NCBI GenBank assembly: GCA_030619905.1
Contig: JAUXAO010000003.1
Location: 54,119-118,118, forward strand
DNA length: 64,000 nucleotides
Origin: a bacterium
GTDB lineage: Bacteria > Patescibacteriota > Minisyncoccia > Minisyncoccales > CG1-02-41-26
Direction of reading: 5' to 3'
The translations under genes and the position numbers were made by a program. Under the pieces are notes generated by a model that saw nothing but the letters and a program-made list of their open reading frames with translations, ran no database searches and had not been told where the DNA came from. Position 1 is the stretch's first letter; every line of letters starts with the position of its first letter. This document shows positions 5,266 to 29,400 of this stretch, one piece after another.

Positions 5266-5291
5266 AAAAACCGCCCTTCAAGGCGGTTTTT
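5266..5291 (+). terminator. Rho-independent terminator after the surface-protein gene
   Basis: aaaaaccgcc-cttcaa-ggcggttttt: a GC stem followed by a T-run, about 50 nt after the stop codon. Confidence 0.8.
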
Positions 5292-5333
5292 GGATTTTAT
5301 CTTTTAAAAATTTTATGCTAAAATAAAAAAATT

Positions 5334-7729: not shown

Positions 7730-7736
7730 TAAATAT

Positions 7737-8666: not shown

Positions 8667-8667
8667 A

Positions 8668-10146
8668 ATGGATATTAAAAACACAATCAGAAATATTATT
8701 TCCGATCCGGGTGCTTTTTTTCTGAAAAACTTAGGAACTAAGCAAACCCTTGCCAAGAATACTTTTTGGCTGGCTGTAGCTGAAGGAGTAACTAGATTTT
8801 TAAAGCTGTTTTTGATCATTTATGTTGCCCGGATTTTGGGAGCTACTGAATACGGAAAATTCACTTTTGCTTTGGCTTTTGTAAGTTTATTCGCTATTTT
8901 TTCTGACTTTGGCATTTCTTCCATTGCTACCCGCGAAATTGCCAGGGAAAAAGAGAGAGAAAAGGATTTTCCGGCTCTTCTTTCCTTAAAACTTGTTTTA
9001 AGTATAGGAACCTTAATTTTAATTTGTCTTGGTTCCTTTTTTATTACTCTTGACCCAATAATCCGGGGAATGATCTGGATTTTAGGAATTTATATTATAG
9101 TAAGCGGTTTTTCAGGGATTATTTACGCTTTCTTCCAAGCCCGCCAGAAAATGGAATATCAGGCTTGGGCTAAGATTTTACAGGCAATAGCCGTAACTGG
9201 AGCGGGATTTTTTGTTCTTTTCAATTTTCCTTCGGTTAAGAATTTAAGTTTAAGTTATTTATTTGCCAGTTTAGTTGCTTTAATATTTATTTTGTTATTA
9301 TTTCACTTCAAGGTTTGTCAATTGAAAATATCTTTTAATAGTATTATTTGGCGGAATGTTTTATTAATGTCTTGGCCTTTAGCTTTAGGAGGGGCTATGG
9401 GCTCAATTTGCGCCAGCACTGATTCAATAATGATGGGCTATTGGGGACAAATTACTCAAACTGGTTGGTATAATGCTGCTCAGAGAATTGTGGCAGTTGC
9501 TTTTATTCCCACTAGTCTAATTGCCTCAAGTTTTTTTCCAGCCCTGAGTAAATTTTTTGGCCAGTCAAAAGAAAAATTCCAGAAAAGCTGGAATTATTTT
9601 ATGGAGGTAATGATTCTTCTGGCTGTTCCTTTGGTGATTGGCGGTATTGTTTTAGCCCCAAAGATTATTAACTTTGTTTACGATCCAAGCTATTTGTATG
9701 CTGTTCTGGCTTTTCAAATTTTGATAGTAACCGGCGGAGTTGCAATTCTAAGTGGTCCTTTTAGCCAGGCCTTAGTTGTTTCAAATCAGCAGAAAAAAAC
9801 TTTTTGGATCGTTCTTTTTGGAGCAGTTCTCAATGTAATTTTAAACTTGATTTTAATTCCTAAATATTCTCTCTATGGTGCTGCTTTGACTAGTTTGACA
9901 GCCAGTATTTTAATGTTGTTCTTGCTTTTTAAATTTACCTCAAAATTCACTCACATTCAGCCAATTAATTTAAGATTAATTTTCTTTTTTCTTATAGCTT
10001 TCATTTCTAGCATTATAATGTATTTAGTAATTTCCTTTCCTGATGTTTATAATCTTTATATTATTTATATTATTTTAATCGGTATTTTAGTTTATCTCCC
10101 CACTTTCTTTATATTAAAAAAGGTGTTAAAGTATTTTATTAAGTAA
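8668..10146 (+). CDS. wzx: Oligosaccharide/polysaccharide flippase, MOP superfamily (Wzx-like)
   Basis: 492 aa, about 12-14 hydrophobic helices, typical Wzx N-terminus ([31 protein letters not shown]). Located in the glycan locus. Confidence 0.8.
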
Positions 10147-10151
10147 TCTAT

Positions 10152-11240
10152 ATGAAAAAAGCACTTATAACTGGAATTACAGGACAGGATGGCTCATATT
10201 TAGCAGAGTTTTTGTTAAATAAAGGCTATGAAGTTCACGGAATTAAAAGACGAGCTTCTTCTTTTAACACAGAAAGGATTGACCATCTTTATCAGGATCC
10301 TCATAAAAAAGAGAGGAGGTTTGTTCTTCATTACGGCGATATGACTGATGCGACCAATTTAATGAGAATTGTTCAGAAAATCTGGCCAGACGAGATTTAT
10401 AATTTAGCTGCTATGTCCCATGTTAGAGTTTCTTATGAAATGCCGGAATATACGGCAGATGCAGATGGCTTGGGTTGTTTAAGATTATTGGAAGCAGTTA
10501 GGACCCTTGGCTTGGAGAAAAAAACAAAATTTTATCAGGCATCAACCAGTGAACTATTCTCTGGAAAACCCGGAGAGGCGCCCCAAAATGAAAATACTCC
10601 TTTTTATCCAAGAAGTCCTTATGGAGTAGCTAAACTATATGCCTATTGGATTACTGTTAATTATAGAGAGGCATATAATATCTTTGCCTGTAATGGCATT
10701 TTATTTAATCACGAGAGTCCGCGGCGGGGTGAAACCTTTGTGACCAGAAAAATTACCAGAGCAGCATCAAGAATTGAATTAGGTTTGCAGGACAAATTGT
10801 ATTTAGGAAATTTAAATGCCAAAAGGGATTGGGGACACAGTAAAGATAGTGTTGAAGCAATGTGGTTAATGTTACAACAGCCAGAACCAGATGATTATGT
10901 GATTGCCACAGGTAAACAACATTCAGTTAGAGAGTTTTGTCAACTCGCCTTTAAAGAACTGGGAATTGATTTAGAATGGCAGGGAGAAGGATTAAATGAA
11001 AAGGGGATAGACAAAAAAACAGGCAAAGTAATAGTAGAGGTTGATCCAAGATATTTTAGGCCAGCTGAAGTGGAGTCACTATTAGGCGATTCAACTAAAG
11101 CCAGGGAGAAACTCGGCTGGAGACCAAAAACAAGTTTTGAAGAGTTGATTAAAGAAATGGTTCAATCTGATTTAGAAGAAGCGAAGAAAGAACTTCATTT
11201 GAAAAACGGCGGTTTCGAAGTGAAAAACTATTTCGACTAA
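10152..11240 (+). CDS. gmd: GDP-mannose 4,6-dehydratase
   Basis: [44 protein letters not shown] and [17 protein letters not shown] are near-invariant Gmd motifs. Confidence 0.95.
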
Positions 11241-11242
11241 AT

Positions 11243-11443
11243 ATGATTGATTTAATTAAAAAGAAAATTTTAGTTACAGGAGCTCAGGGTTTTTTAGGGA
11301 GATATTTAGTAAAAAATTTGTTAGAGAAAAGACAAGTTTCCAGAGAAAATTTATTCTTGCCAACGTTTGAAGAATTGGATTTAAGAAAGGGGGGGGCATT
11401 GCCAAAAAAGAATTTGGCTTTGAAGCAAAAACAGATTTTATAG
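11243..11443 (+). pseudogene. Internally deleted remnant of GDP-L-fucose synthase (fcl)
   Basis: The first ~48 codons parallel the intact fcl at 12387, including a ~55-nt exact repeat (11334-11388 = 12478-12532). A G8 tract follows, then ~40 nt matching the fcl 3' end (11401-11440 vs 13240-13279) out of frame. Confidence 0.8.
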
Positions 11444-11467
11444 TTTTAGTTCGGAAAATTTTTAATT

Positions 11468-12268
11468 ATGAAGCATACCACGAAACACACATTGAAGCTT
11501 ATATTAATTAAATGCAGATTATTGTCATTCGTTCAACCAATCTATGAGGCATTGATTTCTCTTTTGCCAAATATTTGTCATCAACGGGAGAAAGAATATA
11601 GAGAGCGGCAGGAAAAAATGCTTAAGTTTTACTCTCAATTCATTAAAAAAGGCGATGCCGTTTTTGACATAGGAGCTCATCGGGGAAATAGAACTGAAAT
11701 ATTTCTCAGACTTGGAGCAAGGGTAGTTGCGGTGGAGCCACAGAAAAGATGCATTAAATATTTACAATCGAAATTTGGGAAAGAACCAAATTTTATATTG
11801 GTGAAAAAAGGTTTATCAGACAAGGAGGGAAAATTAACTATATTTGTTTGCGGAGAAGCTGATACCATTTCTACTTTTTCAGAAAAGTGGAAAACTGGCA
11901 GATTTTCTAATTACAAATGGAATAAGCAAGAAATTGTTCCTGTTACTACCTTGGATAATTTGATAAAAGAATTTGGAATACCATCTTTTTGTAAAATTGA
12001 TGTAGAGGGTTATGAATTAAAAGTTTTAAAAGGTCTTTCAAAGCCAATTCCTTATTTGAGCTTTGAGTTTACTAAAGAATTTTTTGAAGACGCAAAAGCC
12101 TGTTTAGATCATCTCATCTCTTTAGGTTATTGGCAATTTAATTTTTCTTTAAGTGGAAGCATGGAATTTTTCTTCCCTCGGTGGGAAAGTTCAAAAGAGA
12201 TTATTCAAAAAACCTCCTTAATTAAAGATAAACTTTTGTGGGGCGATATTTATGCTAAATTTTTTTAA
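11468..12268 (+). CDS. FkbM-family SAM-dependent methyltransferase
   Basis: VFDIGAHRGNRTEIFLRLGARVVAVEPQ and CKIDVEGYELKVLKGL are FkbM hallmarks. Confidence 0.85.
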   Translation: MKHTTKHTLKLILIKCRLLSFVQPIYEALISLLPNICHQREKEYRERQEKMLKFYSQFIKKGDAVFDIGAHRGNRTEIFLRLGARVVAVEPQKRCIKYLQSKFGKEPNFILVKKGLSDKEGKLTIFVCGEADTISTFSEKWKTGRFSNYKWNKQEIVPVTTLDNLIKEFGIPSFCKIDVEGYELKVLKGLSKPIPYLSFEFTKEFFEDAKACLDHLISLGYWQFNFSLSGSMEFFFPRWESSKEIIQKTSLIKDKLLWGDIYAKFF

Positions 12269-12383
12269 AAAAAATTTAGAAATAATTTATCAGTGGTTAA
12301 AACCAAAGATGAAATTTAAAGATTTAATTAAAATAATAGTTGATGCTGATTTAAAAGTTTGGGGAGTAAAAAAGTAAATTTAG

Positions 12384-13322
<939 letters not shown>

Positions 13323-13346
13323 AATATTTAATAAAAAAATAAAAAT

Positions 13347-14135
13347 ATGGAAACAAAAAATATTCCAGTCATTATGTTGTGTGGTGGCAAGGGAATGCGT
13401 TTGCTTGAAGAAACTGAATTTAAGCCAAAGCCGATGGTAGAAATAGGAGGAAAACCCATTTTGTGGCATATTATGAAAATATATGCTCATTACGGATATC
13501 GCGATTTTGTTCTTGCTCTCGGATATAAAGGCGATTATATAAAGGATTATTTCCTAAAGCAAAAATATTATGAGTCAGATTTTTGCTTGAATACAAAAGA
13601 TGGAGAAATTTCGAATGTTATTCCAAATAATAGTTTTGAAAAAGATGAATTTAATATAATTTTTACAGATACTGGTTTAGAAACGCCTCATGGTGAAAGA
13701 GTTTTAAAACTTAAAAAATATATTCCAGGGGATTTATTTATGGTAACCTATGGAGACGGTGTTGCGGATATTGATATTGATAAATTGATAGAATTTCATA
13801 AAAGCAAGGATGTGATAGCAACAATAACCGGTGTTCATCCTATTTCTCGTTGGGGTTTGGTAAACACTGATGAGAATAACATTATTACTCAATTTTCTCA
13901 AAAACCAATGCTTTATGATTATGTAAATGGAGGATTTATGGTGTTTAAAAAGGAATTTTTAGACATTCTAAAAGAAGGAGATATGATCGAAGATGCCCTT
14001 TCCAGATTACTTCCCCAAAAACAAGTAGCCTTATATAAACATGAAGGTTTTTGGTATGGAATGGATACTTATAAAGATTTTGTCTTCTTAAACAATCTTT
14101 GGGATGAAGATCCTAAATGGAAAGTTTGGGAATAA
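13347..14135 (+). CDS. rfbF: Glucose-1-phosphate cytidylyltransferase
   Basis: KPKPMVEIGGKPILWHIMKIYAHYG, VNGGFMVF and GFWYGMDTYKD match RfbF/DdhA closely. Confidence 0.9.
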   Translation: METKNIPVIMLCGGKGMRLLEETEFKPKPMVEIGGKPILWHIMKIYAHYGYRDFVLALGYKGDYIKDYFLKQKYYESDFCLNTKDGEISNVIPNNSFEKDEFNIIFTDTGLETPHGERVLKLKKYIPGDLFMVTYGDGVADIDIDKLIEFHKSKDVIATITGVHPISRWGLVNTDENNIITQFSQKPMLYDYVNGGFMVFKKEFLDILKEGDMIEDALSRLLPQKQVALYKHEGFWYGMDTYKDFVFLNNLWDEDPKWKVWE

Positions 14136-14138
14136 AAT

Positions 14139-15089
14139 ATGGAAAACTTTAAATCAATGAATATTTTAGTAACCGGAGGAGCTGGATTTATTGGTTCTTG
14201 TCTTGTAAATAAATTAGTGGAGCAAGGTCATAATGTTGTAGTGATTGATAATCTATCTAGTGGCAGAAAAGAAAATCTTAACCCCAAAGCCAAATTTTAT
14301 GAGATGGATGTTCGTGATTCTAAAATTTATCAGATTTTTCAAGATGAAAATCCAGAAACAGTTTTTCATTTAGCTGCCCAGCCAATTGTAGAAATCGCTT
14401 ATAAAAATCCCTTAGAAACAATGGAAACAAATATCATGGGCACAGCTAATATTCTTGAAGCATGCAGGTTGAAGGGGGATATAAAATCAATTGTAGTAAC
14501 TTCGTCTGACAAAGCTTATGGCAAAGCAGAAAAATTACCATATACTGAAACAGTTCCGTTAAAGGGGGATCATCCTTATGAGGTTTCTAAATCTTCTGCT
14601 GATTTGATTGCCAGGGCATATTTTAAAACTTATGGATTGCCAGTAACAATTACTCGTTTTGGTAATGTATTTGGCCCGGGTGATATTAATTTTGATCGGA
14701 TTATTCCCGGTATTTTTAAATCAATTCTCACAGATGCTGAATTTTTAGTTAGAAGTGATGGTAAAATGATTAGAGAATATATTTATGTGGATGACATAAC
14801 AAATGGATGTATAAAATTAGCACAAAACATAGAAAAAATTAAAGGAGAGGCTTTTAATTTTGGCAGCAAAAATATTTTTAGCGTAATGCAGGTGATTGAA
14901 AAGATAAAAGATATATTAAAAGTAAAAATAAATTATCAGATATTAAATACTGCTAAAAATGAAATACCAGAACAATATCTTGATTGGACTAAAATAAATA
15001 AAACATTAGGCTGGCAACCAGAAATGAGCTTTGAAGAAGGAATAAAAAAATCTTTTGACTGGTATAAAAACTTTTATTCTACTAAATAA
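14139..15089 (+). CDS. NDP-hexose 4,6-dehydratase-type SDR, likely the CDP-glucose 4,6-dehydratase role (RfbG/DdhB-like core)
   Basis: AAQPIVEIAY, TNIMGTANILE, SSDKAYG and PYEVSKSSADL resemble RfbG blocks. The N-terminal ~75 aa are nearly the same as the SDR at 7737. Confidence 0.6.
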   Translation: MENFKSMNILVTGGAGFIGSCLVNKLVEQGHNVVVIDNLSSGRKENLNPKAKFYEMDVRDSKIYQIFQDENPETVFHLAAQPIVEIAYKNPLETMETNIMGTANILEACRLKGDIKSIVVTSSDKAYGKAEKLPYTETVPLKGDHPYEVSKSSADLIARAYFKTYGLPVTITRFGNVFGPGDINFDRIIPGIFKSILTDAEFLVRSDGKMIREYIYVDDITNGCIKLAQNIEKIKGEAFNFGSKNIFSVMQVIEKIKDILKVKINYQILNTAKNEIPEQYLDWTKINKTLGWQPEMSFEEGIKKSFDWYKNFYSTK

Positions 15090-15092
15090 AAT

Positions 15093-16031
15093 ATGAAAAA
15101 GGTTTTAATTACAGGCGGAGCAGGATTTATTGCGTCTAATTTTGTCCGGAAATTTCTAAAGTTAGGTTATAAAATTTATATAATTGAAAAAAAAGGATCA
15201 AATTTTTGGCAACTTGAAGATATAAAAAATAAAATTAAGATTAATTATATTGATCTTAAAAATTTTCCTAAATTAGAATCTTTCATTATTAAAACTAAAC
15301 CTCAAATTATATTGCATTTTGCTGCCTATGGCACTTATCCTCGAAAACAACAAGATGTAAAAATGATGATAGATACTAATTTACTTGGGACAATAAATTT
15401 AGTAAATGCTTTGAGAAAAATAAGATTTGAATGCTTTATCAATACTGGTAGTTCTTCTGAATATGGAATAAAAAATAAACCAATGAGAGAAGCTGATTTG
15501 TTAAAACCAAATAATCTTTACGGCGTGACAAAAGCAGCGGCTACTATGTATTGTCAGTATATGGCGAAACAATATGATTTACCGATTGTATCTTCTCGAT
15601 TATTTGCTGTTTATGGTTATTTCGAGAATAGAGAGCGACTCGTTCCAACGATAATAAGCTCGTGTTTAAAAAATGAAAAACTGAAATTATCTTCACCGAG
15701 CTCAGTAAGAGATTTTATATTTATTGAGGACATAATAAATGCCTATTTGAAGATAATAGAAAATATTCAAAGAATTAAGGGAGAAGTTCTTAATCTTGGC
15801 ACAGGAAAACAAATTGATATTGCCCAGGTTGTAAGTTTGATTAAAAAAATTACTAATTCAAGAATAAAACCAGAATACAATCAAATAAAACCAGCCCAAA
15901 CAGAACCAAAAAATTGGGGAGCTGATATTTCAAAAATTAAAAGGTTATTAAATTGGCAACCGCAATACAGCTTGGAAGAAGGACTTAAAAAAGACATAAG
16001 GTGGTTTAGGAAAAACATCTCTGTGTATTAA
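15093..16031 (+). CDS. NAD(P)-dependent NDP-sugar reductase/epimerase (extended SDR)
   Basis: VLITGGAGFIASNF, SSSEYG, YGVTKAAA (YxxxK). Sits between the dehydratase and the ThDP enzyme. Confidence 0.65.
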   Translation: MKKVLITGGAGFIASNFVRKFLKLGYKIYIIEKKGSNFWQLEDIKNKIKINYIDLKNFPKLESFIIKTKPQIILHFAAYGTYPRKQQDVKMMIDTNLLGTINLVNALRKIRFECFINTGSSSEYGIKNKPMREADLLKPNNLYGVTKAAATMYCQYMAKQYDLPIVSSRLFAVYGYFENRERLVPTIISSCLKNEKLKLSSPSSVRDFIFIEDIINAYLKIIENIQRIKGEVLNLGTGKQIDIAQVVSLIKKITNSRIKPEYNQIKPAQTEPKNWGADISKIKRLLNWQPQYSLEEGLKKDIRWFRKNISVY

Positions 16032-16042
16032 AATTTAAAATT

Positions 16043-17806
16043 ATGAAATTGTCAAACTATATTATTGATTTTCTTGTAGCTAATAAAATAACACACATTT
16101 TTGAAGTTTGTGGGGGGGCTTTAGCTCATTTACTTGATTCTCTCTATAGAAGGAAAGATATTTTTACTGTATCTATGCATCATGAGATGGCTGCTGCGAT
16201 TGCTGCTGAGGGTTATGCGCGAGCTAGCGGAAATATAGGTGTAGCTATGGCAACAAGTGGACCAGGAGCAACGGGTTTGATAACCGGTATTGGGAGTTGT
16301 TTTTTTGATTCAATTCCGTGTCTTTTTATCACTGGTCAAGTAAATACTTATGAATTCAAGTTTGATAAACCTGTTAGACAAATTGGCTTTCAGGAAACAG
16401 ATATTGTAAATATAGTAAAACCTATTACTAAAGAGGCTGTAATTATTAAAGATGCTAATAGAATAAAATACCATCTTGAAAGACTGTTATATATGACAAA
16501 ATCTGGTCGTCCTGGTCCGGTACTGTTAGACACCCCATTAAATATTCAACGTGCAAATATTAATTCGGATAAGCTACAATCTTTTAAAAAGAATGATGCT
16601 GAGACTACTAAGAAAATAGATAGCAAGGTAATGGAAAAGGTAGTAACCCTGATAAGAACTTCTTCACGACCAGTTGTTTTGGCTGGTGGGGGTCTTAGAT
16701 TATCAGGTGCACAAGATGAACTTTTTAAATTTATAGAAAAGACCGAGATACCGGTTGTGACCTCTCTGATGGGATTAGACGTTTTTCCGCATGATAACTC
16801 ATCTTTCGTTGGAATGTTAGGTAGTTATGGAAATCGTTATGCCAATTTAACTGTTGCAAATGCTGATTTGCTTTTAGTTTTGGGGTCAAGGTTAGATACA
16901 AGACAAACTGGGACAAGGCCAGAGACTTTTGCGAGGGGAGCGAAGATTATCCATGTAGACATTGATTCTTATGAGTTAAATAACAAGATTAGAGCAGATA
17001 TTGCTATTAACTCGGATCTTAAATACTTTTTGGTTGGATTAAATAAAAACATTCGTAATTATGATAAGGATAAAATAGAATCTTGGAAGCGAATAATAAA
17101 AGGTTATAAAAATCAGTACCCATCTTATAAAGAATCCGCTGGCGATGAGATAGAACCTAATTTTTTTATAAATAAACTATCTAAGGTTATTCCAGAAAAC
17201 GCTGTAATATGTACAGATGTTGGCCAGATTCAAATGTGGGCTGCTCAATCTCTAGAGATAAAAAAATCTCAAAGGTTTTTAACTCAAGGGGGAATGGGGG
17301 CAATGGGTTCAGCTTTGCCTATGGCAATTGGTGCCTCTTTCGCTAAACCTGGCAAAATCATTGTTGTTATAACCGGTGATGGTGGTTTTCAATTGAATAT
17401 TCAAGAACTTCAAACAGTTTTTTATCATAAATTACCTATAAAAATAATACTTCTAAATAACAAATGTTATGGTATGGTAAGACAGTTTCAAGAACAATAT
17501 TTTGGTAGTAGATTTCAATCGACGGTTATTGGATATAGTGCGCCAGATTTTCAGAAAGTGGTATCTGCTTATGGGATACCGTCAATAAAAATTTCTACTA
17601 ATAGTGAAATAAAAAATGCTTTGCATAAACTTTTTAACGATAGAAAAACAAAATTCCTTGAAATTAGTATAGATTTAAAAACTCCGGTTTATCCAAAACT
17701 ATCTGTAAATAAGCCGATAGAGGATCAGGACCCACTGTTACCGCGAGATAAACTCAGATCAAATATGATTATTAAACCTTTAAAAGAAAATAAAAATGAA
17801 AAGTAA
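16043..17806 (+). CDS. Thiamine-diphosphate enzyme of the acetolactate-synthase large-subunit family; by context a YerE-like sugar branching enzyme
   Basis: 587 aa. ThDP motif GDGGFQLNIQELQT...NN, and N-terminal ATSGPGATGLITGIGSCFFDSIP. No ilvN/ilvC neighbours; embedded between CDP-sugar genes. Confidence 0.7.
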   Translation: MKLSNYIIDFLVANKITHIFEVCGGALAHLLDSLYRRKDIFTVSMHHEMAAAIAAEGYARASGNIGVAMATSGPGATGLITGIGSCFFDSIPCLFITGQVNTYEFKFDKPVRQIGFQETDIVNIVKPITKEAVIIKDANRIKYHLERLLYMTKSGRPGPVLLDTPLNIQRANINSDKLQSFKKNDAETTKKIDSKVMEKVVTLIRTSSRPVVLAGGGLRLSGAQDELFKFIEKTEIPVVTSLMGLDVFPHDNSSFVGMLGSYGNRYANLTVANADLLLVLGSRLDTRQTGTRPETFARGAKIIHVDIDSYELNNKIRADIAINSDLKYFLVGLNKNIRNYDKDKIESWKRIIKGYKNQYPSYKESAGDEIEPNFFINKLSKVIPENAVICTDVGQIQMWAAQSLEIKKSQRFLTQGGMGAMGSALPMAIGASFAKPGKIIVVITGDGGFQLNIQELQTVFYHKLPIKIILLNNKCYGMVRQFQEQYFGSRFQSTVIGYSAPDFQKVVSAYGIPSIKISTNSEIKNALHKLFNDRKTKFLEISIDLKTPVYPKLSVNKPIEDQDPLLPRDKLRSNMIIKPLKENKNEK

Positions 17807-17829
17807 AAAACAATTAAGAAAAGAAATTT

Positions 17830-19113
17830 TTGAGAGGGTTAAAAAAAATCTATAGATTAAAAAAAGAAAAAGAGAAATTTATTCTTGGTAAAACTAGAAT
17901 CAATTATGCAGGTCGGGTTTATGACGAAAAAGAAATGATAAATTTGGTTGATGCCTCTTTAGATTTTTGGTTAACTGCTGGAAGATATACGAAAGAATTT
18001 GAAAAGAAGTTTGCAGAACTTTTAGGTACAAAGTATTGCTTATTAGCAAATTCCGGTTCTTCAGCCAATCTTCTGGCTATTTCGGCTTTAACTTCTTCAA
18101 AATTAGGAAAACGGAGATTAAAACCCGGTGATGAGGTTATTACTACTGCTTGTGGATTTCCAACTACTTTAAATCCTATTTTACAGAATAATTTAATCCC
18201 TGTTTTCATAGATATTGATTTGGGTACTTACAATATCCAAGTAGATAAAATTGAAAAAGCAATTTCTAAAAAAACCAAAGCAATTTTTATCACTCACACT
18301 TTAGGTAATCCTGTAAACCTTGATAAAATCCTAAAAATAGTGAAGAAATATAATCTTTGGTTTATTGAAGACAGCTGTGATGCTTTAAGTTCAAAATACA
18401 AAGGAAAATATACTGGAACTTTTGGCCATATTGGAACTTTTAGTTTTTACCCGGCGCATCAAATAACAATGGGAGAAGGGGGAGCTGCAGTTACAAACAA
18501 TTTATTATTGAAAAAAATAATTGCTTCTTTCCGTGATTGGGGAAGAGATTGTTGGTGTGAACCAGGTCATGATAATACCTGCGGTAAAAGATTTAGTCAA
18601 CAGTTTGGGAAATTGCCATTTAGTTACGACCATAAATATGTTTATTCCCATATTGGCTATAATTTAAAGATTACCGACCTTCAAGCAGCAGTAGGGGTAG
18701 CTCAACTTAAAAAATTGCCTTCTTTTATCGAAACTAGAAGAAAAAATTTTGATTATCTTTATAAATTTTTCAAACAATGCGAAAAATACTTTTTCCTTCC
18801 TCAATCAGAAAAATATTCTCAACCTTGTTGGTTTGGTTTTCCTCTTTTAGTAAAAAAAGAAACTCCATTTACCAGGACTGAAATTGTGAATTATTTAGAA
18901 GCAAATGAAATTGCCACCAGAATGCTTTTTGGCGGAAATCTAACCAAACAACCAGCTTATCAAAATACAAAATATAGAATTTTCGGCACATTAGAAAATA
19001 CAGATTTAGTAATGAATAACCTTTTTTGGATAGGTGTCGGTCCCTTGATTAGTAAAGAGATGATTGAATATGTATCTGATACTTTCTTAAAGTTTTTTAA
19101 AAAATATGAATAA
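17830..19113 (+). CDS. rfbH: CDP-6-deoxy-4-hexulose 3-dehydrase (E1; RfbH/DdhC), PMP and [2Fe-2S] type. The 5' end is probably at 17796 with a frameshift in an A8 tract.
   Basis: Exact C-X57-C-X1-C-X7-C spacing (Cys183, 241, 243, 251; nt 18376-18582). FYPAHQITMGEGG has His in place of the aminotransferase Lys. GFPTT and SGSSANL blocks are present. Confidence 0.85.
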   Translation: MRGLKKIYRLKKEKEKFILGKTRINYAGRVYDEKEMINLVDASLDFWLTAGRYTKEFEKKFAELLGTKYCLLANSGSSANLLAISALTSSKLGKRRLKPGDEVITTACGFPTTLNPILQNNLIPVFIDIDLGTYNIQVDKIEKAISKKTKAIFITHTLGNPVNLDKILKIVKKYNLWFIEDSCDALSSKYKGKYTGTFGHIGTFSFYPAHQITMGEGGAAVTNNLLLKKIIASFRDWGRDCWCEPGHDNTCGKRFSQQFGKLPFSYDHKYVYSHIGYNLKITDLQAAVGVAQLKKLPSFIETRRKNFDYLYKFFKQCEKYFFLPQSEKYSQPCWFGFPLLVKKETPFTRTEIVNYLEANEIATRMLFGGNLTKQPAYQNTKYRIFGTLENTDLVMNNLFWIGVGPLISKEMIEYVSDTFLKFFKKYE

Positions 19114-19744
19114 TCTAATAAAAATAAAGAATTTTATAATTAAAGTACCGTTTTTATTTAATATACTGGTATATTTTGTCAGAATTAGAACTACTGGTAC
19201 TATTTTTGTTAAGTTGTTAACTCAGGAGGAAAAAGTAAAATTGTTGCTGGATTATGCAAAAAAGTTTGATTGTAAAATTTTTGTAGAAACTGGCACATAC
19301 AGAGGAGATACAATTTATAGTTGTAAAGATTTTTTTGACGAGTTGTTTTCAATTGAATTAAGTCACAAGTTGTTTGTAGATTGTAAAAATAGATTTCTAA
19401 ATTATAATAAAGTTCATGTTTTTGAAGGTAATAGTAGTATAATATTTCCTAAAATTGTTAAAGAAAAAAGTCAGTCAATACTTTTTTGGTTGGATGCCCA
19501 CTATTCTGGTGGTGAGACGGCACGGGGTGAACAGGATTCACCTATAATTAAAGAGTTAAATTTTATATTAAAAAATGTGCCTAAATTTTGTATTTTAATT
19601 GATGATGCTAGATGTTTTAATGGTAAAAATGGATATCCTACAATAGGCTTTTTGAAAAAGATGATAAATAATAATCAAAATAGTAAAAATTATATTTTGG
19701 AGTTGCAAGTAAAAAATGATATTATAAGAATTACTTGTACATAA
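19106..19744 (+). CDS. Putative methyltransferase-fold protein (uncertain)
   Basis: Gly-rich loop IFVETGTYRGDT, then FWLDAHYSGGE and ILIDDARCF. Resembles small SAM-MTase-like proteins of glycan loci, but no firm family call. Confidence 0.4.
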   Translation: MNNLIKIKNFIIKVPFLFNILVYFVRIRTTGTIFVKLLTQEEKVKLLLDYAKKFDCKIFVETGTYRGDTIYSCKDFFDELFSIELSHKLFVDCKNRFLNYNKVHVFEGNSSIIFPKIVKEKSQSILFWLDAHYSGGETARGEQDSPIIKELNFILKNVPKFCILIDDARCFNGKNGYPTIGFLKKMINNNQNSKNYILELQVKNDIIRITCT

Positions 19745-19785
19745 TATTTTTTACTTTCCTAATTTAGAAAGTATCAAAATATAGT

Positions 19786-20156
19786 ATGTTTAATTTAAAA
19801 GATTTTATTATAAATAATTTTTATCTTTATAAATTTTATATTAAGTCAAAATTATTTCTAGAATCAAAAAAATTATTTCTAAAAAGAAAATAGCTCAATA
19901 TATCAGAAAGAATTCTGTAATTATTGAAATCATCGGCGCCCATGTCGGCAGTGACATGGTAGAAAGGGCTGTATTATGGCCAAAAGGCCAAATCTATGCT
20001 TTTGAACCGATTCGAAATATTTTTGATAGATTGTGCTTTAAAACAAAAAAATTCAAAAATATTGAAATAATTCAAGCGGCGGTTACGGATAAAAACGACA
20101 AAGGAACGGAGGAAATTTTTTATAATAATGCTGTTAAATTATTTCTAATAGTATAA
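19786..20156 (+). pseudogene. Frameshifted and 3'-truncated FkbM-type methyltransferase remnant
   Basis: The frame with EIIGAHVGSDMVERAVLWPKGQIYAFEPIRNIFDRL...IIQAAVTDKNDKG matches the FkbM N-terminal half. It has no in-frame ATG (a possible start at 19786 is in another frame) and no DVEG C-terminal half. Confidence 0.6.
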
Positions 20157-20195
20157 AAACCAGAATAATTTAATTAATTTAGTAATATCAATCTT

Positions 20196-21473
20196 ATGAA
20201 TTTAAGCTACCCAGAACACCATTTTGTAAAAAATGGGCATATAAAAACCTGTCAGATTTGCAACTCTGACAAACTCCACACAATCCTTGATCTAGGTCAT
20301 CAACCGCTGTGTGATTCGTTGTTAACGGAAAGCATGTTAAATGAACCAGAGAAAAATTATCCGCTACGCATGGTATGGTGTGAAAATTGCACAAATGCTC
20401 AAATTGATTATTGCGTTGATGGCAAAGAAGTGTACTACCCCGACTATCCTTATAGAAGTGGTGTAACAAAAGAACTTGTAGAATATCAAGTAAAAATAAG
20501 CCATTCTCTTATAAGAAAGTATGGGCTGAAAACAAATGATTTAGTTGTAGACGTCGGATCTAATGATGGAATACTGCTGAGCGGTTTTAAAAATACAGGG
20601 ATTAAGACACTCGGAGTTGAACCAACAAATATTGCAAAAATTGCAAATGCAAATGGCATTGAAACAATTCAAGAATTTTTTGATATTAGAGTTTCAGAAG
20701 AAATAAAAAATAAATACGGATTGGCTTCCGTTATCGTGACAACAAATACTTTTGCGCATATGCAAACAATCGGTGAATTCATTGTGGGGGCATATAATTT
20801 ATTAAAAAACGGTGGAATATTTATTTCCGAAACACACTATCTTTTGGATGTAATAAAAGGAGGGCAATTTGACACAGTATATCACGAACATTTAAGAACT
20901 TATTCTCTTAAAGGTCTCGTAACTTTATTTAACCAATATGATTTTACCGTGACAGATGTTGAGAGGGGTGACAGATACGGAGGAAACATCCGAGTTCATG
21001 TAACCAAGGGAAGGAATAGAAAAGTTAGTCCGGAAGTTGACAAATTATTAAAAATTGAAGAAGAATTTGGGCTCGGAAAACTTGAAACTTTTGAAAAATT
21101 TGCCAAGCGGGTAAAAACCGCTCGTCTAGGGTTTATGGATTTTTTGATTGCAACAAATAAGGCCGGAAAACGTATAGTAGGGAATTCATGTCCAGGGCGA
21201 AGTTCTACTCTTTTGAATTATTATGGAGTAGATTCGGAATTGTTACCATACTTGGCTGAACAGCCAGCATCTCTCAAATTAGGAAAGTATTTGCCAGGTA
21301 AGCATATTCCCGTGGTAAATAATCAGCGGCTCATAGATGAGCAGCCGGATTATGTCGTTTTGTTGGCATGGCATTACGCCAAGCCGATAATGAAACAACT
21401 AAAGGCAAGGGGGTTGAAGTCTGATTTTGTGATTCCTTTGCCAGATTTTAAAATAGTAAAAAATTCAGAATAA
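20196..21473 (+). CDS. NDP-hexose C-methyltransferase (TylCIII/EvaC-like; zinc-finger N-terminus, SAM domain, C-MT C-terminal domain)
   Basis: CQICNSDKL...LGHQPLCDSL...VWCENCTNAQI zinc-binding N-terminus. VVDVGSNDGILL SAM motif. 425 aa, typical for the family. Confidence 0.8.
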   Translation: MNLSYPEHHFVKNGHIKTCQICNSDKLHTILDLGHQPLCDSLLTESMLNEPEKNYPLRMVWCENCTNAQIDYCVDGKEVYYPDYPYRSGVTKELVEYQVKISHSLIRKYGLKTNDLVVDVGSNDGILLSGFKNTGIKTLGVEPTNIAKIANANGIETIQEFFDIRVSEEIKNKYGLASVIVTTNTFAHMQTIGEFIVGAYNLLKNGGIFISETHYLLDVIKGGQFDTVYHEHLRTYSLKGLVTLFNQYDFTVTDVERGDRYGGNIRVHVTKGRNRKVSPEVDKLLKIEEEFGLGKLETFEKFAKRVKTARLGFMDFLIATNKAGKRIVGNSCPGRSSTLLNYYGVDSELLPYLAEQPASLKLGKYLPGKHIPVVNNQRLIDEQPDYVVLLAWHYAKPIMKQLKARGLKSDFVIPLPDFKIVKNSE

Positions 21474-21484
21474 GATTTACCTTT

Positions 21485-22492
21485 ATGTTAAAAATCGGGA
21501 TAATTGGATCTGGATTTGGCCTTTATGGCCTGTTGCCTGCGTTCAATTCTATAAAAAATTGCCAAGTGACCTGTATTTGCGGGGAAAAAACAGATCGTTT
21601 GGTGAAATATTGTCAAAGCATTAATCTTGAGAATATCTATTCTGATTGGAGAATTATGCTGGAAAACGAAAATTTAGACGCGATTGCCTTAGCAGTTCCA
21701 CCGAGTGTTCAATATGAAATCGCAAAAGTTGCAATCAAGAAAAAGATAAACGTATTTGCTGAAAAACCATTAGCCGCAAACTACAATCAAGCTAAAGAGC
21801 TTCTCTTTCTTGCTCAAAAAAAAAGAATAACTCATGCAGTTGATTTTATTTTTCCTGAAATAGAAGAATGGCAAAAAGTGAAACAAATTATAGACAAAAA
21901 AACCTATGGAAAGCTGAAGCATATTTCCGTTAATTGGAATTTTCTTAGCTACAATATAAAAAATAAAATTTCATCCTGGAAAACAAATCCTGAGAGGGGC
22001 GGTGGTGCACTGTCTTTTTATTTTTCTCATGCTTTGTATTATTTGGAATATTATGCAGGGGAAATTTTAAATTTAAAAAGTTTATTCTCTTATCCTAAGA
22101 AAAGCAAAAATGACGGAGAAGTTGGAGCAGACATAATTATCCGATTCAAAAGTGGCATTAATGGTAATGCTCACATTTATTCAAGCGACAAGGGTCTTAA
22201 TAGACACCAGCTGATATTCAGATTTGAAAAAGCCACAATTATATTAGAGAACAAAAACAATGTAACTAAAAATTTCACGATAAGTGCTTATGTCGGAAAA
22301 AAGACAAAAAAAATAACCGTTAAAAAGAACGATATTACAAGAAAAGGAGAAGACGAGCGGGTAAGGATTGTTAGAAAAATTGGTACCAGATTTATAAATG
22401 CATGCATTAGTAAAAACCCCACCCATCCCTCATTTGAAGAAGGATTTAGAGTTCAAGCATTAATAGACAAAATTCGGCGAAACGAAATATAA
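21485..22492 (+). CDS. Gfo/Idh/MocA-family NAD(P) oxidoreductase
   Basis: LKIGIIGSGFGLYGLLPAF Rossmann start and the VFAEKPLA motif. Confidence 0.85.
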   Translation: MLKIGIIGSGFGLYGLLPAFNSIKNCQVTCICGEKTDRLVKYCQSINLENIYSDWRIMLENENLDAIALAVPPSVQYEIAKVAIKKKINVFAEKPLAANYNQAKELLFLAQKKRITHAVDFIFPEIEEWQKVKQIIDKKTYGKLKHISVNWNFLSYNIKNKISSWKTNPERGGGALSFYFSHALYYLEYYAGEILNLKSLFSYPKKSKNDGEVGADIIIRFKSGINGNAHIYSSDKGLNRHQLIFRFEKATIILENKNNVTKNFTISAYVGKKTKKITVKKNDITRKGEDERVRIVRKIGTRFINACISKNPTHPSFEEGFRVQALIDKIRRNEI

Positions 22493-22517
22493 AACATAGA
22501 TATTAAATTTATTAGCC

Positions 22518-23432
22518 ATGGACAATAAGCCCCTACTTAGCATTTGTATTCCTACCTATAACAGAGTGTTGTGCCTGCAGCAATGCCTGGAAAGCATTAC
22601 GGAACAATTTAAAAATCCCCTTATATTGAAAAATGTTGAAGTGGTGATTTCCGATAATGCCAGTACGGATGATACTGAAAATTTAGTGAAAAAGTATCAA
22701 GAAAAATTTCCCAACATCTTATATCACAAGAACATTGAAAACATTGGAGTTGATCGAAATATTTTAACCGTAACGGAAAAAGCCAACGGTAACTATGTTT
22801 GGCTTTTAGGAGATGACGATGCGTTGTTCCCTGACGCTATAACCCATATATTGGAAAAGATAAAATTAAAAGAGTTTAAGTATTGCCTTGTCAATTGCCT
22901 TGGTTATGATAGTAATTTGATTAATCCGGCTTTACGATATCCGAATCTTAAGATTCAAGCCGACCAACATTTTGAAAAGTTGCTGGAGTGCGTAAAAAAA
23001 ACAAACAAAAAAGATTTAGTCGGTCTTTTTTGTGGACTATCGGGCCAAATTTTTGATAAAAAAATATGGGAATCTTGGCCGGAAAAGCAAAAATACATAG
23101 GTTCAAATGCTGTGCATTTATATGTTTTGCTTTCAGCTATGAAAAACCAAAAATTTATAATAATAGCAAAGCCGCTGGTCAAGGTAAGGGCTGCCAATAT
23201 TCGCTGGGAAACGTTTTCTGGGTTGGAAACTTTAGTAAAGAGAACTCAGTCCACTTCTAAAAGTTTAGTTTGGATACTTGAAACTTATGAGATACCTTAT
23301 TCCAAACTATCTCTAAAAATTGAGCAGGGTAAAAATATTTTATTTGGCTGGACAAATAATATTCTGAGAAATCATATTTTCAAAAACCAAAAATCTCGCG
23401 ATTTTATAAAAAGATTACTGGGAAGGCTTTAA
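22518..23432 (+). CDS. Glycosyltransferase family 2
   Basis: LLSICIPTYNR...VVISDNASTDDT...LLGDDD (DxD). Confidence 0.85.
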   Translation: MDNKPLLSICIPTYNRVLCLQQCLESITEQFKNPLILKNVEVVISDNASTDDTENLVKKYQEKFPNILYHKNIENIGVDRNILTVTEKANGNYVWLLGDDDALFPDAITHILEKIKLKEFKYCLVNCLGYDSNLINPALRYPNLKIQADQHFEKLLECVKKTNKKDLVGLFCGLSGQIFDKKIWESWPEKQKYIGSNAVHLYVLLSAMKNQKFIIIAKPLVKVRAANIRWETFSGLETLVKRTQSTSKSLVWILETYEIPYSKLSLKIEQGKNILFGWTNNILRNHIFKNQKSRDFIKRLLGRL

Positions 23433-23575
23433 AATAATGAAGATTTTTTGACATAAAGGTATGGATAATTTGCTTAAGATAAAAAAATAGAATATTATAC
23501 TGGTCGTTTGTTAGTTAGAATTTTTGGACTTAGAAAATTTTCTTATTCTAGCTTAAATGAAGATAATATCATCGA

Positions 23576-24032
23576 TTGGCTGACGGGGTACAAAAAAATG
23601 GTATCTATATAGATATTGGTGCAAATAATCCAGATGTTATAAATAACACAAAGTTATTTTATGAAAAGGGATGGCGAGGAATAAATATTGAACCATCAGA
23701 AAAAGAGTTTAGGATGTTACAAGAAAAAAGGCCGGTTTTTTACAAGGGAGAGAAAGATAATTCTGGAAACACTTTTAATAAAGAAGTAGCAAAAAAGGGG
23801 GGCTAGAAAAAGCCAACGTCTAATTCTAAAACCGTTGTCAAATATTTTTAAAGAAAATAATTTGGTTAGAGTAGATTTTATTTCGATTGACGTGGAAGGA
23901 TTTGAAATGGAAGTTTTAAAAAGCAACGACTGGATAAAATATAAGGCAGACGTTTTATGTATTGAAGGTTTTGGTTATGGACATCTCAAAAAGTTTGGTC
24001 ATAAATTTGTTTTTTTGGGATGGATTAAATAG
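23576..24032 (+). pseudogene. FkbM-type methyltransferase split by a frameshift at an A6G6 tract
   Basis: ORF 23576-23806 carries IYIDIGANNPDVINNTKLFYEKGWRGINIEPS. ORF 23835-24032 (frame open from ~23803) carries VRVDFISIDVEGFEMEVLKS. The frames differ by 1 nt around aaaaaagggggg (23791-23802). No ATG start. Confidence 0.7.
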
Positions 24033-24047
24033 TTACTATAAATTGTT

Positions 24048-24890
24048 ATGAGTAATATCACTTTTGTAATTTTTACATTCAATGAAGAAAAAAGAATTGA
24101 ATATGCTATTCGTAATTTTATAAATTATGGCGAAGTTTTAATAATGGATGGTGGTAGCACTGATAAAACAAAGGAAATAGCGGAAAAATTGGGGGCAAAA
24201 TTTTTTTCACGACCTTTGAGTAATAGACCGCAAGTAGAAACACAGGAAATTTTTGACTTTATCAAAGATAAAGTGAAAACGGATTGGATTTATTGGGGTT
24301 ACGTTGATAATTTCGCTCCGAAAACTTTACTAGATAAGTTTGTTGAAATTTCATCCCAAAATGTTTTTAAGGTGGTTGTAAATCCTCTTTATACTTACCT
24401 TTGGGGTAATACCAAAAATTTTGCACACAAAGGAGGCACGCAGGTTTTTTTTCACAAGAATTATATAAGCTTTGTTGATAATAATATGCACAACATGGGT
24501 AGATTTATCGGAAAAAAAGACGAATTATTAAGATTGCCAAACAGAAAAGAATTTGCCTTGATTCATTTCAGTACCTATAATATTGGTAAATTTGTGGCGG
24601 GTCACCTAAAATATGCTGAAGCAGAAGCTCTTGATAAGCAAAAGGATGGTAAAAAATTTAACACTACGAGAATGTTAGCTGCGATGATTTATTATTGTTT
24701 TATTTTTTGTAAAAACGGATATAAAAATGGTATTTTAGGTTTAATCGCTATGCTTAGTTATGCTTTTTCAAGATTTATGGTTTACGTAAAATTATACGAA
24801 TTAGAAAAAGGAATAACCATGGAATCAATAGAAAATAATTATAGCAAGATGAAGAAAGAAATGCTGAAAGAGTTTGAGGATATTAATTAA
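24048..24890 (+). CDS. Glycosyltransferase family 2 (short form)
   Basis: ITFVIFTFNEEKRIEYAIRN...IMDGGSTDKTKEIAEKLGAKFF. Confidence 0.75.
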   Translation: MSNITFVIFTFNEEKRIEYAIRNFINYGEVLIMDGGSTDKTKEIAEKLGAKFFSRPLSNRPQVETQEIFDFIKDKVKTDWIYWGYVDNFAPKTLLDKFVEISSQNVFKVVVNPLYTYLWGNTKNFAHKGGTQVFFHKNYISFVDNNMHNMGRFIGKKDELLRLPNRKEFALIHFSTYNIGKFVAGHLKYAEAEALDKQKDGKKFNTTRMLAAMIYYCFIFCKNGYKNGILGLIAMLSYAFSRFMVYVKLYELEKGITMESIENNYSKMKKEMLKEFEDIN

Positions 24891-28999: not shown

Positions 29000-29400
29000 A
29001 ATATAAAGTTAAAGAATTAGAAATCCATTCGGATAAAAGAGGATGGTTGGTGGAAATGTTAAAACAAAACGAACTGAAAGAAAATATAAATCAAGTTTAT
29101 GTTGCGACAATTAAACCGAATTTTACAAGGGGAAACCATTATCATTTGAAACGAAAAGAGTGGTTTTTTATTGTTAATGGAAAGGCCAATGTTTATCTTC
29201 AAGATATAGAAACAAAAGAAAAAATTTGTTTGAAAATTTCTTCAAGAAAACCAAGAATGATAACCATTTTCCCAAAAGTAGCCCATGCAGTTAAAAATAC
29301 GGGAAAAGAAACGATTTATTTAATAAGTGCCCAAAATGATATTTACAACACCAAGAAACCCGAAACATTCACCCATCAACTGAACCAAAAAATATGTTAA
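28984..29400 (+). CDS. Cupin-fold NDP-sugar epimerase/ketoisomerase-like protein (RmlC/FdtA-like)
   Basis: 138 aa. HSDKRGWLVEMLK...RGNHYHLKRKEWFFIVNGKANVYLQD. Confidence 0.55.
   Translation: MAKSIKYKVKELEIHSDKRGWLVEMLKQNELKENINQVYVATIKPNFTRGNHYHLKRKEWFFIVNGKANVYLQDIETKEKICLKISSRKPRMITIFPKVAHAVKNTGKETIYLISAQNDIYNTKKPETFTHQLNQKIC

Follow-up and report, generated by a model that had tools for sequence, protein, structure and literature searches.

Most known branched 3,6-dideoxyhexoses come from the lipopolysaccharides of Gram-negative bacteria and from glycolipids of mycobacteria. CDP-cereose is listed among the pathways derived from glucose 1-phosphate, and the four-gene CDP-cereose/cillose operon of the Bacillus cereus group (rfbF, rfbG, and genes for a C-methyltransferase and a 4-reductase) was reportedly described by Li et al. 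in the Journal of Biological Chemistry (JBC) in 2017. In Yersinia aleksiciae, a ddhD (E3)-ddhA-ddhB-ddhC-yerE-yerF block, which agrees with the published yersiniose scheme (PMC9306805), is followed by GtrA and family 2 glycosyltransferase (GT2) genes. More than 200 biosynthetic gene clusters (BGCs) for YerE-type branched sugars have been predicted (PMC12247030).

Here, a sugar-nucleotide gene cluster was analyzed in a 64-kb window (positions 54,119 to 118,118 of the 119.6-kb contig JAUXAO010000003.1, assembly GCA_030619905.1; GC content, ~0.33) from a bacterium of the candidate phyla radiation (CPR). Coordinates below are window positions, and loci from other genomes and metagenomes carry L numbers. 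The cluster consists of eight open reading frames (ORFs) between 13347 and 22492, all on the plus strand and 3 to 26 nt apart except for a 450-nt gap before a C-methyltransferase gene; they are tightly packed and lie at the coordinates given in the original prediction, which had been made from the letters of this DNA. We think it probable that the cluster encodes two branches, both derived from CDP-glucose and with their first two enzymes in common, and that it forms the sugar-nucleotide core of a surface-glycan locus in a Patescibacteria chromosome; we read it as two modules fused at the shared RfbF and RfbG steps. The prediction of a CDP-glucose-derived, E1-dependent yersiniose-type pathway, branched by a thiamine diphosphate (ThDP) enzyme, in a CPR genome stands, within the limits of what sequence can test.

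The first gene (13347 to 14135) encodes a 262-residue RfbF/DdhA-like glucose-1-phosphate cytidylyltransferase. TIGR02623 was by far its best model and matched over the full length (E = 4.7e-73; 245.8 bits, which does not reach the cutoff of 300.25), and the protein was 38% identical to Y. aleksiciae DdhA. This enzyme would make the CDP-glucose used by both branches. The second gene (14139 to 15089) encodes a short, 316-residue extended short-chain dehydrogenase/reductase (SDR). Its best NCBIfam model was the CDP-glucose 4,6-dehydratase model TIGR02622 (202.4 bits, below the cutoff of 278.45), with the dTDP-glucose dehydratase model nearly tied at 197 bits, and its best solved relative was Thermotoga GalE (4ZRM, 200 bits), followed by a CDP-glucose dehydratase (1WVG) at 128 bits. 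The TSSDKAYG and YEVSK segments of the protein align with TTDKCY and YSNSK of Yersinia DdhB, and [ST]DKxY was kept in all 22 relatives of at least 38% identity. Because this Asp-Lys couple is the acid/base pair specific to CDP-glucose 4,6-dehydratases (PMC8987622), the protein is predicted from its sequence to be a short, divergent functional equivalent of RfbG/DdhB that would dehydrate CDP-glucose to CDP-4-keto-6-deoxy-D-glucose, again for both branches. The enzyme earlier labeled "RfbG-like" is thus a short, divergent form with a GalE as its best solved relative, and its identification as a dehydratase comes from the Asp-Lys pair.

The main body of the fifth gene (17830 to 19113, plus strand; 427 codons) encodes a 3-dehydrase of the E1 (RfbH/DdhC/AscC) family. 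It scored 695.4 bits with NF011936 (RfbH), for which the cutoff is 423, and 539 bits (E = 7e-161) with the solved Yersinia pseudotuberculosis E1 (3BCX); it was 54% identical to Yersinia DdhC and 61 to 83% identical to the E1 proteins of the related cassettes described below. The Fe-S motif is exact (C183-X57-C241-X-C243-X7-C251), and His210 in FYPAHQITMGEGG replaces the aminotransferase Lys, as described for E1-type 3-dehydrases (PMC8987622). The Fe-S cysteines and the His were kept in 38 of 39 cassette E1 homologues. The assignment as E1/RfbH/DdhC (CDP-4-keto-6-deoxyglucose 3-dehydrase) is firm, and the original prediction, which had called it firm from the Cys spacing and the His, is confirmed on both counts and by the model score. 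In branch 1, E1 would use pyridoxamine 5'-phosphate (PMP) and its [2Fe-2S] cluster to remove the C3 hydroxyl, yielding CDP-4-keto-3,6-dideoxyglucose.

Immediately upstream, the plus-strand gene at 16043 to 17806 encodes a 587-residue protein with the three ThDP-enzyme domains (Pfam TPP_enzyme_N, _M, and _C). A competing identity is an ordinary acetolactate synthase (acetohydroxyacid synthase, AHAS) that happens to lie beside sugar genes: the protein scored 518.3 bits with TIGR00118, just short of the 538.35 cutoff (other AHAS models were far under theirs), it is 38% identical to plant AHAS, and its relatives carry acetolactate synthase annotations from JGI. The best solved relative was 5AHK (393.6 bits, versus 363 for plant AHAS). 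This structure was deposited as "acetolactate synthase II," and we take it to be the YerE homologue of P. protegens (PpYerE). PpYerE and YpYerE are characterized ketone-accepting carboligases (PMC12247030); that paper cites the PpYerE structure report and does not mention the code 5AHK. Since raw identities to YerE and AHAS proteins were nearly equal, the YerE-like call was based on the tree, on insertions and deletions, and on genomic context.

The trees were neighbor-joining (NJ) trees with 500 bootstraps and explicit bipartition counts. The sample comprised the cassette clade, eight proteobacterial YerE proteins (from Y. aleksiciae, Y. canariae, and others), eight AHAS proteins, and Gcl, and was without YpYerE, ErwE, JanthE, and the mycobacterial enzymes. 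The AHAS and Gcl references included E. coli IlvB, IlvI, and Gcl, Arabidopsis AHAS, and five plasmid-borne ilvB products that were the most query-like AHAS, taken from the top 15 tblastn matches in a plasmid collection. The cassette clade plus the YerE proteins separated from the AHAS proteins plus Gcl in 100% of the bootstraps; the YerE clade itself had 100% support and the cassette clade 85%. The window protein grouped with those of L052, L001 (Saccharibacteria), and L054 in 100% of the bootstraps, with archaeal sequences immediately outside. Several features were common to the cassette and YerE proteins and occurred in no AHAS of the set: GQVNTYEFKFDKPVRQIGFQE (a 6-residue insert after GQV), RLDTRQTGT (one extra residue after RxDxRQTG; the window protein reads RLDTRQTGT where AHAS proteins have RFDDRxTG), and SMHHE. 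In the MVRQFQ segment of both groups, Phe replaces the AHAS specificity Trp (W574 of the Arabidopsis enzyme).

Genomic context gave the same answer. All five control AHAS genes lay beside ilvN or an ACT-domain gene, three of them also beside ilvC, and two had ilvD nearby, whereas Pfam scans found no ilvN, ilvC, or ilvD in the window; linkage of the cassette ThDP gene to E1 was instead kept across phyla and domains. Location beside genes for a deoxy-keto sugar acceptor is the BGC criterion for YerE-like enzymes in the literature (PMC12247030, PMC9306805), and the window gene lies with those for E1, RfbF, and the RfbG-like SDR. Grouping with true acetolactate synthases in a branched-chain amino acid operon, which had been named in advance as the outcome that would overturn the prediction, was thus not what was found. 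AHAS was rejected at the level of both sequence and context, and we regard it as scarcely credible. From its sequence, the protein is predicted to be a YerE-like carboligase that would decarboxylate a 2-oxo acid and add the resulting acyl anion to C4 of CDP-4-keto-3,6-dideoxyglucose.

Pyruvate would be the likeliest acyl donor, since the locus lacks aldolase and dehydrogenase genes that could provide longer ones. Use of a longer or functionalized 2-oxo acid, as by ErwE, MyGE, or JanthE, would lead to an erwiniose- or caryophyllose-like sugar in place of the two-carbon branch of yersiniose. Donor preference varies widely among characterized YerE-like enzymes (PMC9306805, PMC12247030), and in the tree, the cassette clade lies beside the pyruvate-using YerE clade, as its sister, and not within it. 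The window locus contains no erwI/erwJ-like aldolase or aldehyde dehydrogenase genes, although central metabolism could supply such donors. A longer branch is unlikely on this evidence but deserves some weight.

The remaining gene of branch 1 (15093 to 16031, plus strand) encodes a second extended SDR of 312 residues (Pfam Epimerase and GDP_Man_Dehyd) with GSSSEYG and YGVTK motifs, to which sequence models assign no specific reaction. It shares the Pfam Epimerase family with Y. aleksiciae YerF; comparison of the two gave no tblastn match at E ≤ 1e-3 and no BLASTP match at E ≤ 10, and orthology to YerF was ruled out on that absence of similarity. A simple motif test placed such an SDR directly 5' of the ThDP gene in 25 of 43 loci, and in several others a different SDR-like gene adjoined it. 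The adjacency across loci fits a partner reductase in the YerF role. From its position, the protein is predicted to be an analogue of YerF, an NAD(P)H ketoreductase that would take the product of the ThDP enzyme and reduce its side-chain ketone to give a yersiniose-type 4-C-(1-hydroxyalkyl)-3,6-dideoxyhexose.

The SDR, ThDP, and E1 genes of branch 1 would constitute a cassette that moves between lineages. A locus scan with one genome per species returned 51 loci, in which cassette counts are lower bounds, many contigs being incomplete. A full-length ThDP match was present in 44 loci, and 36 of these also encoded E1 at 50% identity or more; among the 36, E1 lay directly downstream in 23, RfbF was present in 26, and a separate SDR was present in 24; a short Asp-Lys dehydratase was often encoded as well. 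Bacterial carriers comprised two Saccharibacteria, one Paceibacterota metagenome-assembled genome (MAG), six Omnitrophota, one Chloroflexi, and one Actinomycetota; further carriers were ~30 methanogen MAGs (among them Methanoregula, Methanothrix, Methanosarcinales, and Methanobacterium) and, in culture, several strains of Paenibacillus and Cohnella, of which Paenibacillus oryzisoli 1ZS3-15 (L042) has all five genes. The protein database held at least 8,000 homologues of the ThDP enzyme at E ≤ 1e-50, and the best 120 clusters were all at least 66% identical to it. The interleaving of CPR and archaeal sequences in the tree points to exchange of surface-glycan genes across domains, between organisms living in the same habitats.

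The surroundings of the cassette varied among these genomes. It was common in the methanogen loci (L005, L007, L009 to L027, and others; for example, L007 at 5680 to 13080 and L012 at 6299 to 13539), often with a Dpm1-like GT2 gene between the dehydratase and SDR genes and a gene for a GtrA-like membrane protein between the ThDP and E1 genes. That arrangement suggests transfer via a polyprenyl-phosphate sugar, as in the Y. aleksiciae locus. In L052, a gene for a B12-binding radical S-adenosylmethionine (SAM) enzyme follows E1 directly (13064 to 14332), with a split transketolase further on, and in L141 (990 to 7516), a second ThDP enzyme, three radical SAM/SPASM proteins, and a HAD phosphatase are encoded upstream. 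In four Cohnella loci (L031, L032, L033, and L036), a related ThDP gene directly follows an RfbF-like gene, and no E1 or dehydratase gene was detected within 10 kb; for want of these neighbors, the acceptor sugar may differ there.

To our knowledge, no 3,6-dideoxy or YerE-type branched sugar has been reported from CPR bacteria or methanogenic archaea, and a literature search on CDP-glucose plus Patescibacteria found nothing. The comparison indicates that a distinct cassette for such sugars is common in uncultivated anaerobes, including ultrasmall CPR bacteria and many methanogenic archaea, with thousands of close homologues in metagenomes. The clade is also a so far unused source of ketone-accepting ThDP carboligases, enzymes wanted as a means to synthesize tertiary alcohols (PMC12247030).

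The yersiniose pathway includes E3 as reductase of E1, and the original prediction had noted that no E3 was visible here. With Yersinia DdhD as the query, tblastn gave no match at E ≤ 1e-3 in the 64-kb window or in 55 related loci, and a motif scan of the window and the cassette loci recovered only the Yersinia E3 used as a positive control. Pfam scans of 50 of the 54 window ORFs of at least 100 residues found no protein with the E3 combination of Fer2, FAD_binding_6, and NAD_binding_1 (ORFs 47124 to 48755 and 62747 to 63346 and the antisense ORF 12989 to 13291 lay outside the scans, and ORF 26956 to 27987 had no match). The absence noted earlier thus extends beyond the window. SpnQ is served by general electron-transfer pairs, either ferredoxin/ferredoxin reductase or flavodoxin/flavodoxin reductase (PMC8987622). 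Because the Cys and His residues are kept in 38 of 39 cassettes despite the lack of a linked E3, the cluster of E1, by this analogy, is probably functional and reduced by an unlinked donor; and because no cassette lineage has a linked E3, the two electrons for E1 in branch 1 would come from a general ferredoxin or flavodoxin system, as for SpnQ. The clade offers a natural test of E1 reduction without E3.

A second departure from an intact pathway is a frameshift in the E1 gene. The true start is the ATG at 17796, which gives an 11-nt overlap with the end of the ThDP gene, stop codon included; the same overlap is present in intact relatives, whose E1 proteins have the conserved N terminus M(K/R)TEKEIREEIF..V. 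In the window, this 5' end is detached (17796 to 17855, plus strand; MKSKKQLRKEIFERVKK...), since an A8 homopolymer at 17841 to 17848, 45 nt into the gene, carries one extra A, and the frame ends at 17855. DNA alignments with L140, L052, L054, and L002 showed GTT followed by A8 in the window and, in the relatives, either A7 after a GTY codon or an interrupted tract. Deletion of one A in silico restores the conserved N terminus (MKSKKQLRKEIFERVKKIYRLKKEK...). The frameshift flagged in the original prediction is thus real in the assembled sequence, where the first 17 codons are split from the remaining 427, which are open and retain every catalytic residue. The extra A could be an assembly error, a recent mutation, or slippage-prone variation, and transcriptional slippage on A8 could restore the frame. 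The pathway had also been described as complete-looking; without E3 and with E1 frameshifted in the assembly, that wording was too generous.

The frameshift allows a reading in which branch 1 is dead in this bacterium, so that only the C-methyl, fucose, and other pathways feed the glycan and the ThDP and SDR genes are decaying passengers. The extra A truncates the conserved N terminus of E1, the remaining E1 ORF begins at a TTG with no obvious ribosome-binding site, and the remnant of an FkbM-type gene, described below, shows that gene decay is tolerated at the locus. However, the 427 codons are open, with intact catalytic residues and 61 to 83% identity to cassette relatives, and the genes for the ThDP enzyme, the SDR, RfbF, and the RfbG-like dehydratase are intact. 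A one-base homopolymer change is expected also from assembly error, slipped-strand variation, or transcriptional slippage, and the missing E3 is the rule in the whole clade rather than a loss specific to the window. We consider loss of branch 1 unlikely and would expect E1 to be expressed despite the extra A. A more speculative reading, which we hold to be improbable, combines an E3-independent mobile cassette of CPR bacteria, Omnitrophota, and methanogens, powered by general low-potential ferredoxin or flavodoxin, with the C-methyl branch, such that the A tract toggles the cell between a yersiniose-type and a cereose-type sugar or a doubly branched sugar is formed. If this were true, the A tract of E1 would be a slippage-prone switch at the shared CDP-4-keto-6-deoxyglucose node, and the doubly branched alternative would be a sugar unknown so far.

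The genes of branch 2 lie beyond the 450-nt gap. The first (20196 to 21473, plus strand) encodes a nucleoside diphosphate (NDP)-hexose C-methyltransferase of the TylC3/TcaB9/KijD1 type that has a zinc domain at its N terminus (Pfam Methyltransf_13 [PF08421, zinc], Methyltransf_23 [PF13489], and Methyltransf_14 [PF08484]). It resembles MtmC, KijD1, and TcaB9; its solved relatives were 4RV9 (D-mycarose 3-C-methyltransferase; 246 bits), 5T64 (200 bits), and TcaB9 (3NDI; 174 bits). The second (21485 to 22492, plus strand) encodes a Gfo/Idh/MocA oxidoreductase (Pfam GFO_IDH_MocA plus C-terminal domains) with weak solved relatives, such as the sugar 3-ketoreductase 3RBV at 39 bits. Enzymes of the TylC3/TcaB9 type place a methyl group on the carbon adjacent to a 4-keto group. 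In branch 2, C-methylation of the shared intermediate next to its 4-keto group would be followed by ketoreduction, for which the Gfo protein is the predicted ketoreductase of the methylated 4-keto sugar, a role we infer, and the product would be a CDP-C-methyl-6-deoxyhexose of the cereose or vinelose kind.

The two genes form a conserved pair, the Gfo gene following the C-methyltransferase gene in at least 19 metagenome loci. In these, the pair is commonly found beside RfbF and RfbG, and with neither ThDP nor E1 genes, for example in L062, L063, L065, and L073, and the same holds for a plasmid of Legionella adelaidensis. That plasmid carries the closest annotated pair, in the order C-methyltransferase (53% identical), Gfo, GT2, methyltransferase, GtrA, rfbF, rfbG. 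A Bacillus mycoides plasmid has the cereose-type layout rfbF-rfbG-C-methyltransferase-oxidoreductase. These associations bear out the earlier suggestion that the C-methyltransferase marks an alternative branch. Both modules were combined only in the window and in L054 (RfbG-SDR-ThDP-E1-C-methyltransferase-Gfo), and among the genome loci with ThDP and E1, only L027 had even a distant (33%) match to the C-methyltransferase.

Two further elements separate the modules. ORF 19106 to 19744 (plus strand, 212 residues) is an insertion relative to the closest syntenic relative, L054, in which it is absent between E1 and the C-methyltransferase. It matched no Pfam-A or NCBIfam model, had 6,650 cluster representatives at E ≤ 0.001, and belongs to a family with the invariant motifs VETGTYxGDT, WLDAHYSGG, and LIDDAR that is elsewhere fused to FkbM, GT10, DUF268, and hexapeptide transferase domains. 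An AlphaFold model (AF2; 41-sequence alignment; predicted local distance difference test [pLDDT] score, 89) matched the cation-dependent class I O-methyltransferases 3NTV, 4OA5, and catechol O-methyltransferase (COMT) with template modeling (TM) scores of 0.5 to 0.62. The "methyltransferase-like" label given previously therefore holds by the model match, and the protein is probably, on that structural model, a SAM-dependent sugar O-methyltransferase. In the gap itself, 19899 to 20156 (plus strand) is a remnant of the N-terminal third of an FkbM-type methyltransferase gene (Methyltransf_21 profile positions 2 to 61 of 173; E = 0.0018); an intact FkbM gene lies at 11468 to 12268. L054 has a different noncoding or remnant sequence at this position, and the last ~95 nt 5' of the C-methyltransferase start are near-identical in the window and L054. 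The FkbM remnant looks like a recombination scar between two modules.

These data also bear on a serial pathway, in which all eight enzymes would act on one sugar to form a product with two branches, such as a C-methylated 4-C-(1-hydroxyethyl)-3,6-dideoxyhexose that is O-methylated by the ORF 19106 enzyme. The genes are contiguous and co-oriented in both the window and L054, and CDP-4-keto-3,6-dideoxyglucose also offers a carbon next to a 4-keto group. Against this stand the at least 36 genome loci with ThDP and E1, of which L027 alone has a C-methyltransferase match (33%), and the several metagenome loci and the Legionella plasmid in which the C-methyltransferase/Gfo pair accompanies RfbF and RfbG while ThDP and E1 genes are absent. 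In addition, the two halves are separated by an inserted gene and a gene remnant, and a conserved upstream region of its own stays with the C-methyltransferase gene. A single serial pathway thus appears quite unlikely.

Several observations weigh against the reading of two modules joined at shared first steps. The putative dehydratase fails its NCBIfam cutoff and has a GalE as its closest solved structure. The SDR at 15093, being dissimilar to YerF, could be an epimerase or a 4-reductase instead, and the Gfo protein is without a close characterized relative. The ThDP protein is ~38 to 39% identical to YerE and ~38% identical to plant AHAS, only NJ trees separate the two, and the enzymes of the cassette clade are known from sequence alone. 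E1 is frameshifted after codon 17 in the assembly, with its conserved N terminus cut off, and no electron donor was identified in a search limited to 64 kb of the 119.6-kb contig. Finally, synteny alone does not settle whether the branches are separate or serial.

The cluster is embedded in a surface-glycan locus of the Wzx/Wzy type (~31 kb; 7031 to 37953), delimited by Pfam scans and sequence motifs. The locus encodes an NDP-sugar pyrophosphorylase, an epimerase, a Wzx flippase, GMD and Fcl (GDP-fucose), an FkbM methyltransferase, five GT2 enzymes, GT-D, GT10 and GT11 fucosyltransferases, a GT4 enzyme, an RmlB-type dehydratase with a cupin protein and a methyltransferase, and a Wzy_C/TPR protein; the initiating transferase (Bac_transf) is encoded on the minus strand. 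One GT2 gene (22518 to 23432, plus strand; Pfam Glycos_transf_2) lies directly 3' of the sugar-nucleotide genes and is a candidate transferase for one of the CDP-sugars; L001, L052, L141, and the Legionella plasmid likewise have a GT2 gene 3' of the E1 or Gfo gene. The flanks carry housekeeping genes (MurB, SecA, SecDF, PGK, MurJ, LepA, a release factor, FtsEX, and RNase P RNA).

Within the glycan locus, the genes at 27998 to 30149 encode a second deoxysugar route: a 4,6-dehydratase of the RmlB type (STDEVFG), a small Polysacc_synt_C/FdtA/RmlC-like cupin protein, and a methyltransferase (CmcI/Methyltransf_24); the nucleotidyltransferase at 7031 to 7729 is a possible partner. The GDP-fucose (GMD and Fcl), GT10, and GT11 genes (10152 to 13322, 25865 to 26947, and 31844 to 32656) indicate a fucosylated glycan in a CPR bacterium. 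Just 5' of the locus (1784 to 7034), proteins of 1,143 and 566 residues are encoded, with a peptidoglycan-binding domain as the sole Pfam match. At 59265 to 61106, a 613-residue AAA_15/AAA_21 ATPase is encoded beside a tRNA gene, and the next ORF had no Pfam match; these families include AbiEii/OLD-like defense ATPases, and the gene is possibly a defense gene. At 90% identity, the RfbF cluster had 34 members, one of which was named glucose-1-phosphate cytidylyltransferase by its source, and the C-methyltransferase cluster had 3, while the ThDP, SDR, and Gfo proteins were singletons; parts of the gene cluster may have different recent histories. A promoter and terminator scan of 11000 to 24500 gave no signals above shuffled expectation in this AT-rich DNA, and Rfam matches (RNase P RNA and three tRNAs) were judged irrelevant to the sugar cluster.

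The host assignment as a CPR-type genome was supported by a single marker, SecA, whose named relatives (66 to 76% identity) were all from CPR lineages: Nealsonbacteria, the Patescibacteria group, Gribaldobacteria, and Pacebacteria. CPR bacteria are usually described as having reduced genomes, and the original prediction had considered such sugar chemistry unexpected in one; closely related ThDP-E1 cassettes in Saccharibacteria and Paceibacterota MAGs do not agree with that view. In this genome, ~30 kb is given to an elaborate glycan with fucose, C-branched, and O-methylated sugars, as would suit a cell surface that serves to attach to hosts or to avoid phages.

The locus can now be set against the described systems. 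The C-methyl module resembles the cereose operon in having RfbF, RfbG, and a TylC3-type C-methyltransferase followed by an oxidoreductase, as on the B. mycoides plasmid. It differs in that its C-methyltransferase is only ~32% identical and its reductase belongs to the Gfo/Idh/MocA family, whereas the Bacillus enzyme is a 303-residue "NAD(P)-dependent oxidoreductase." SpnQ, an E3-independent PMP/[2Fe-2S] 3-dehydrase, is a model for how an E3-less cassette can function, but SpnQ belongs to an antibiotic pathway of an actinomycete (spinosyn forosamine) and has a dTDP-2,6-dideoxy substrate, and the window E1 is closely homologous to the CDP-specific enzyme of Yersinia. With the presumed PpYerE (5AHK), the window carboligase shares the 6-residue insertion, the one-residue insertion, Phe in place of Trp, SMHHE, and GDGG, at ~40% identity; JanthE (8RPH) scores below AHAS against the same protein, and the label "YerE-like" thus covers very divergent lineages.

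The closest comparison is with the Yersinia yersiniose pathway. Both have a CDP-glucose synthase, an Asp-Lys 4,6-dehydratase, and a PMP/[2Fe-2S] 3-dehydrase with the identical Cys motif and His, and in both, E1 has next to it a ThDP carboligase from the YerE superclade as well as an SDR of the NAD(P) type. The window proteins were 38% (DdhA), 28 to 29% (DdhB), 54% (DdhC), and 38% (YerE) identical to their Yersinia counterparts, and YerF and DdhD had no match. The Yersinia locus has a linked E3, but neither the window nor its relatives do. The SDR gene of the window lies upstream of the ThDP gene, whereas yerF lies downstream of yerE, and the two reductases are unrelated at the BLAST level. The window dehydratase is the short 316-residue form, the ThDP enzyme belongs to a sister clade, and the gene order is FG-SDR-ThDP-E1 rather than D-A-B-C-E-F. 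The hosts of the cassette are CPR bacteria, archaea, and other anaerobes, not Proteobacteria. The cassette is thus a distinct variant of the known YerE-type systems, with no linked E3, a non-YerF reductase, a short dehydratase, and a cross-domain distribution, and in this genome it is fused to a C-methyl module.

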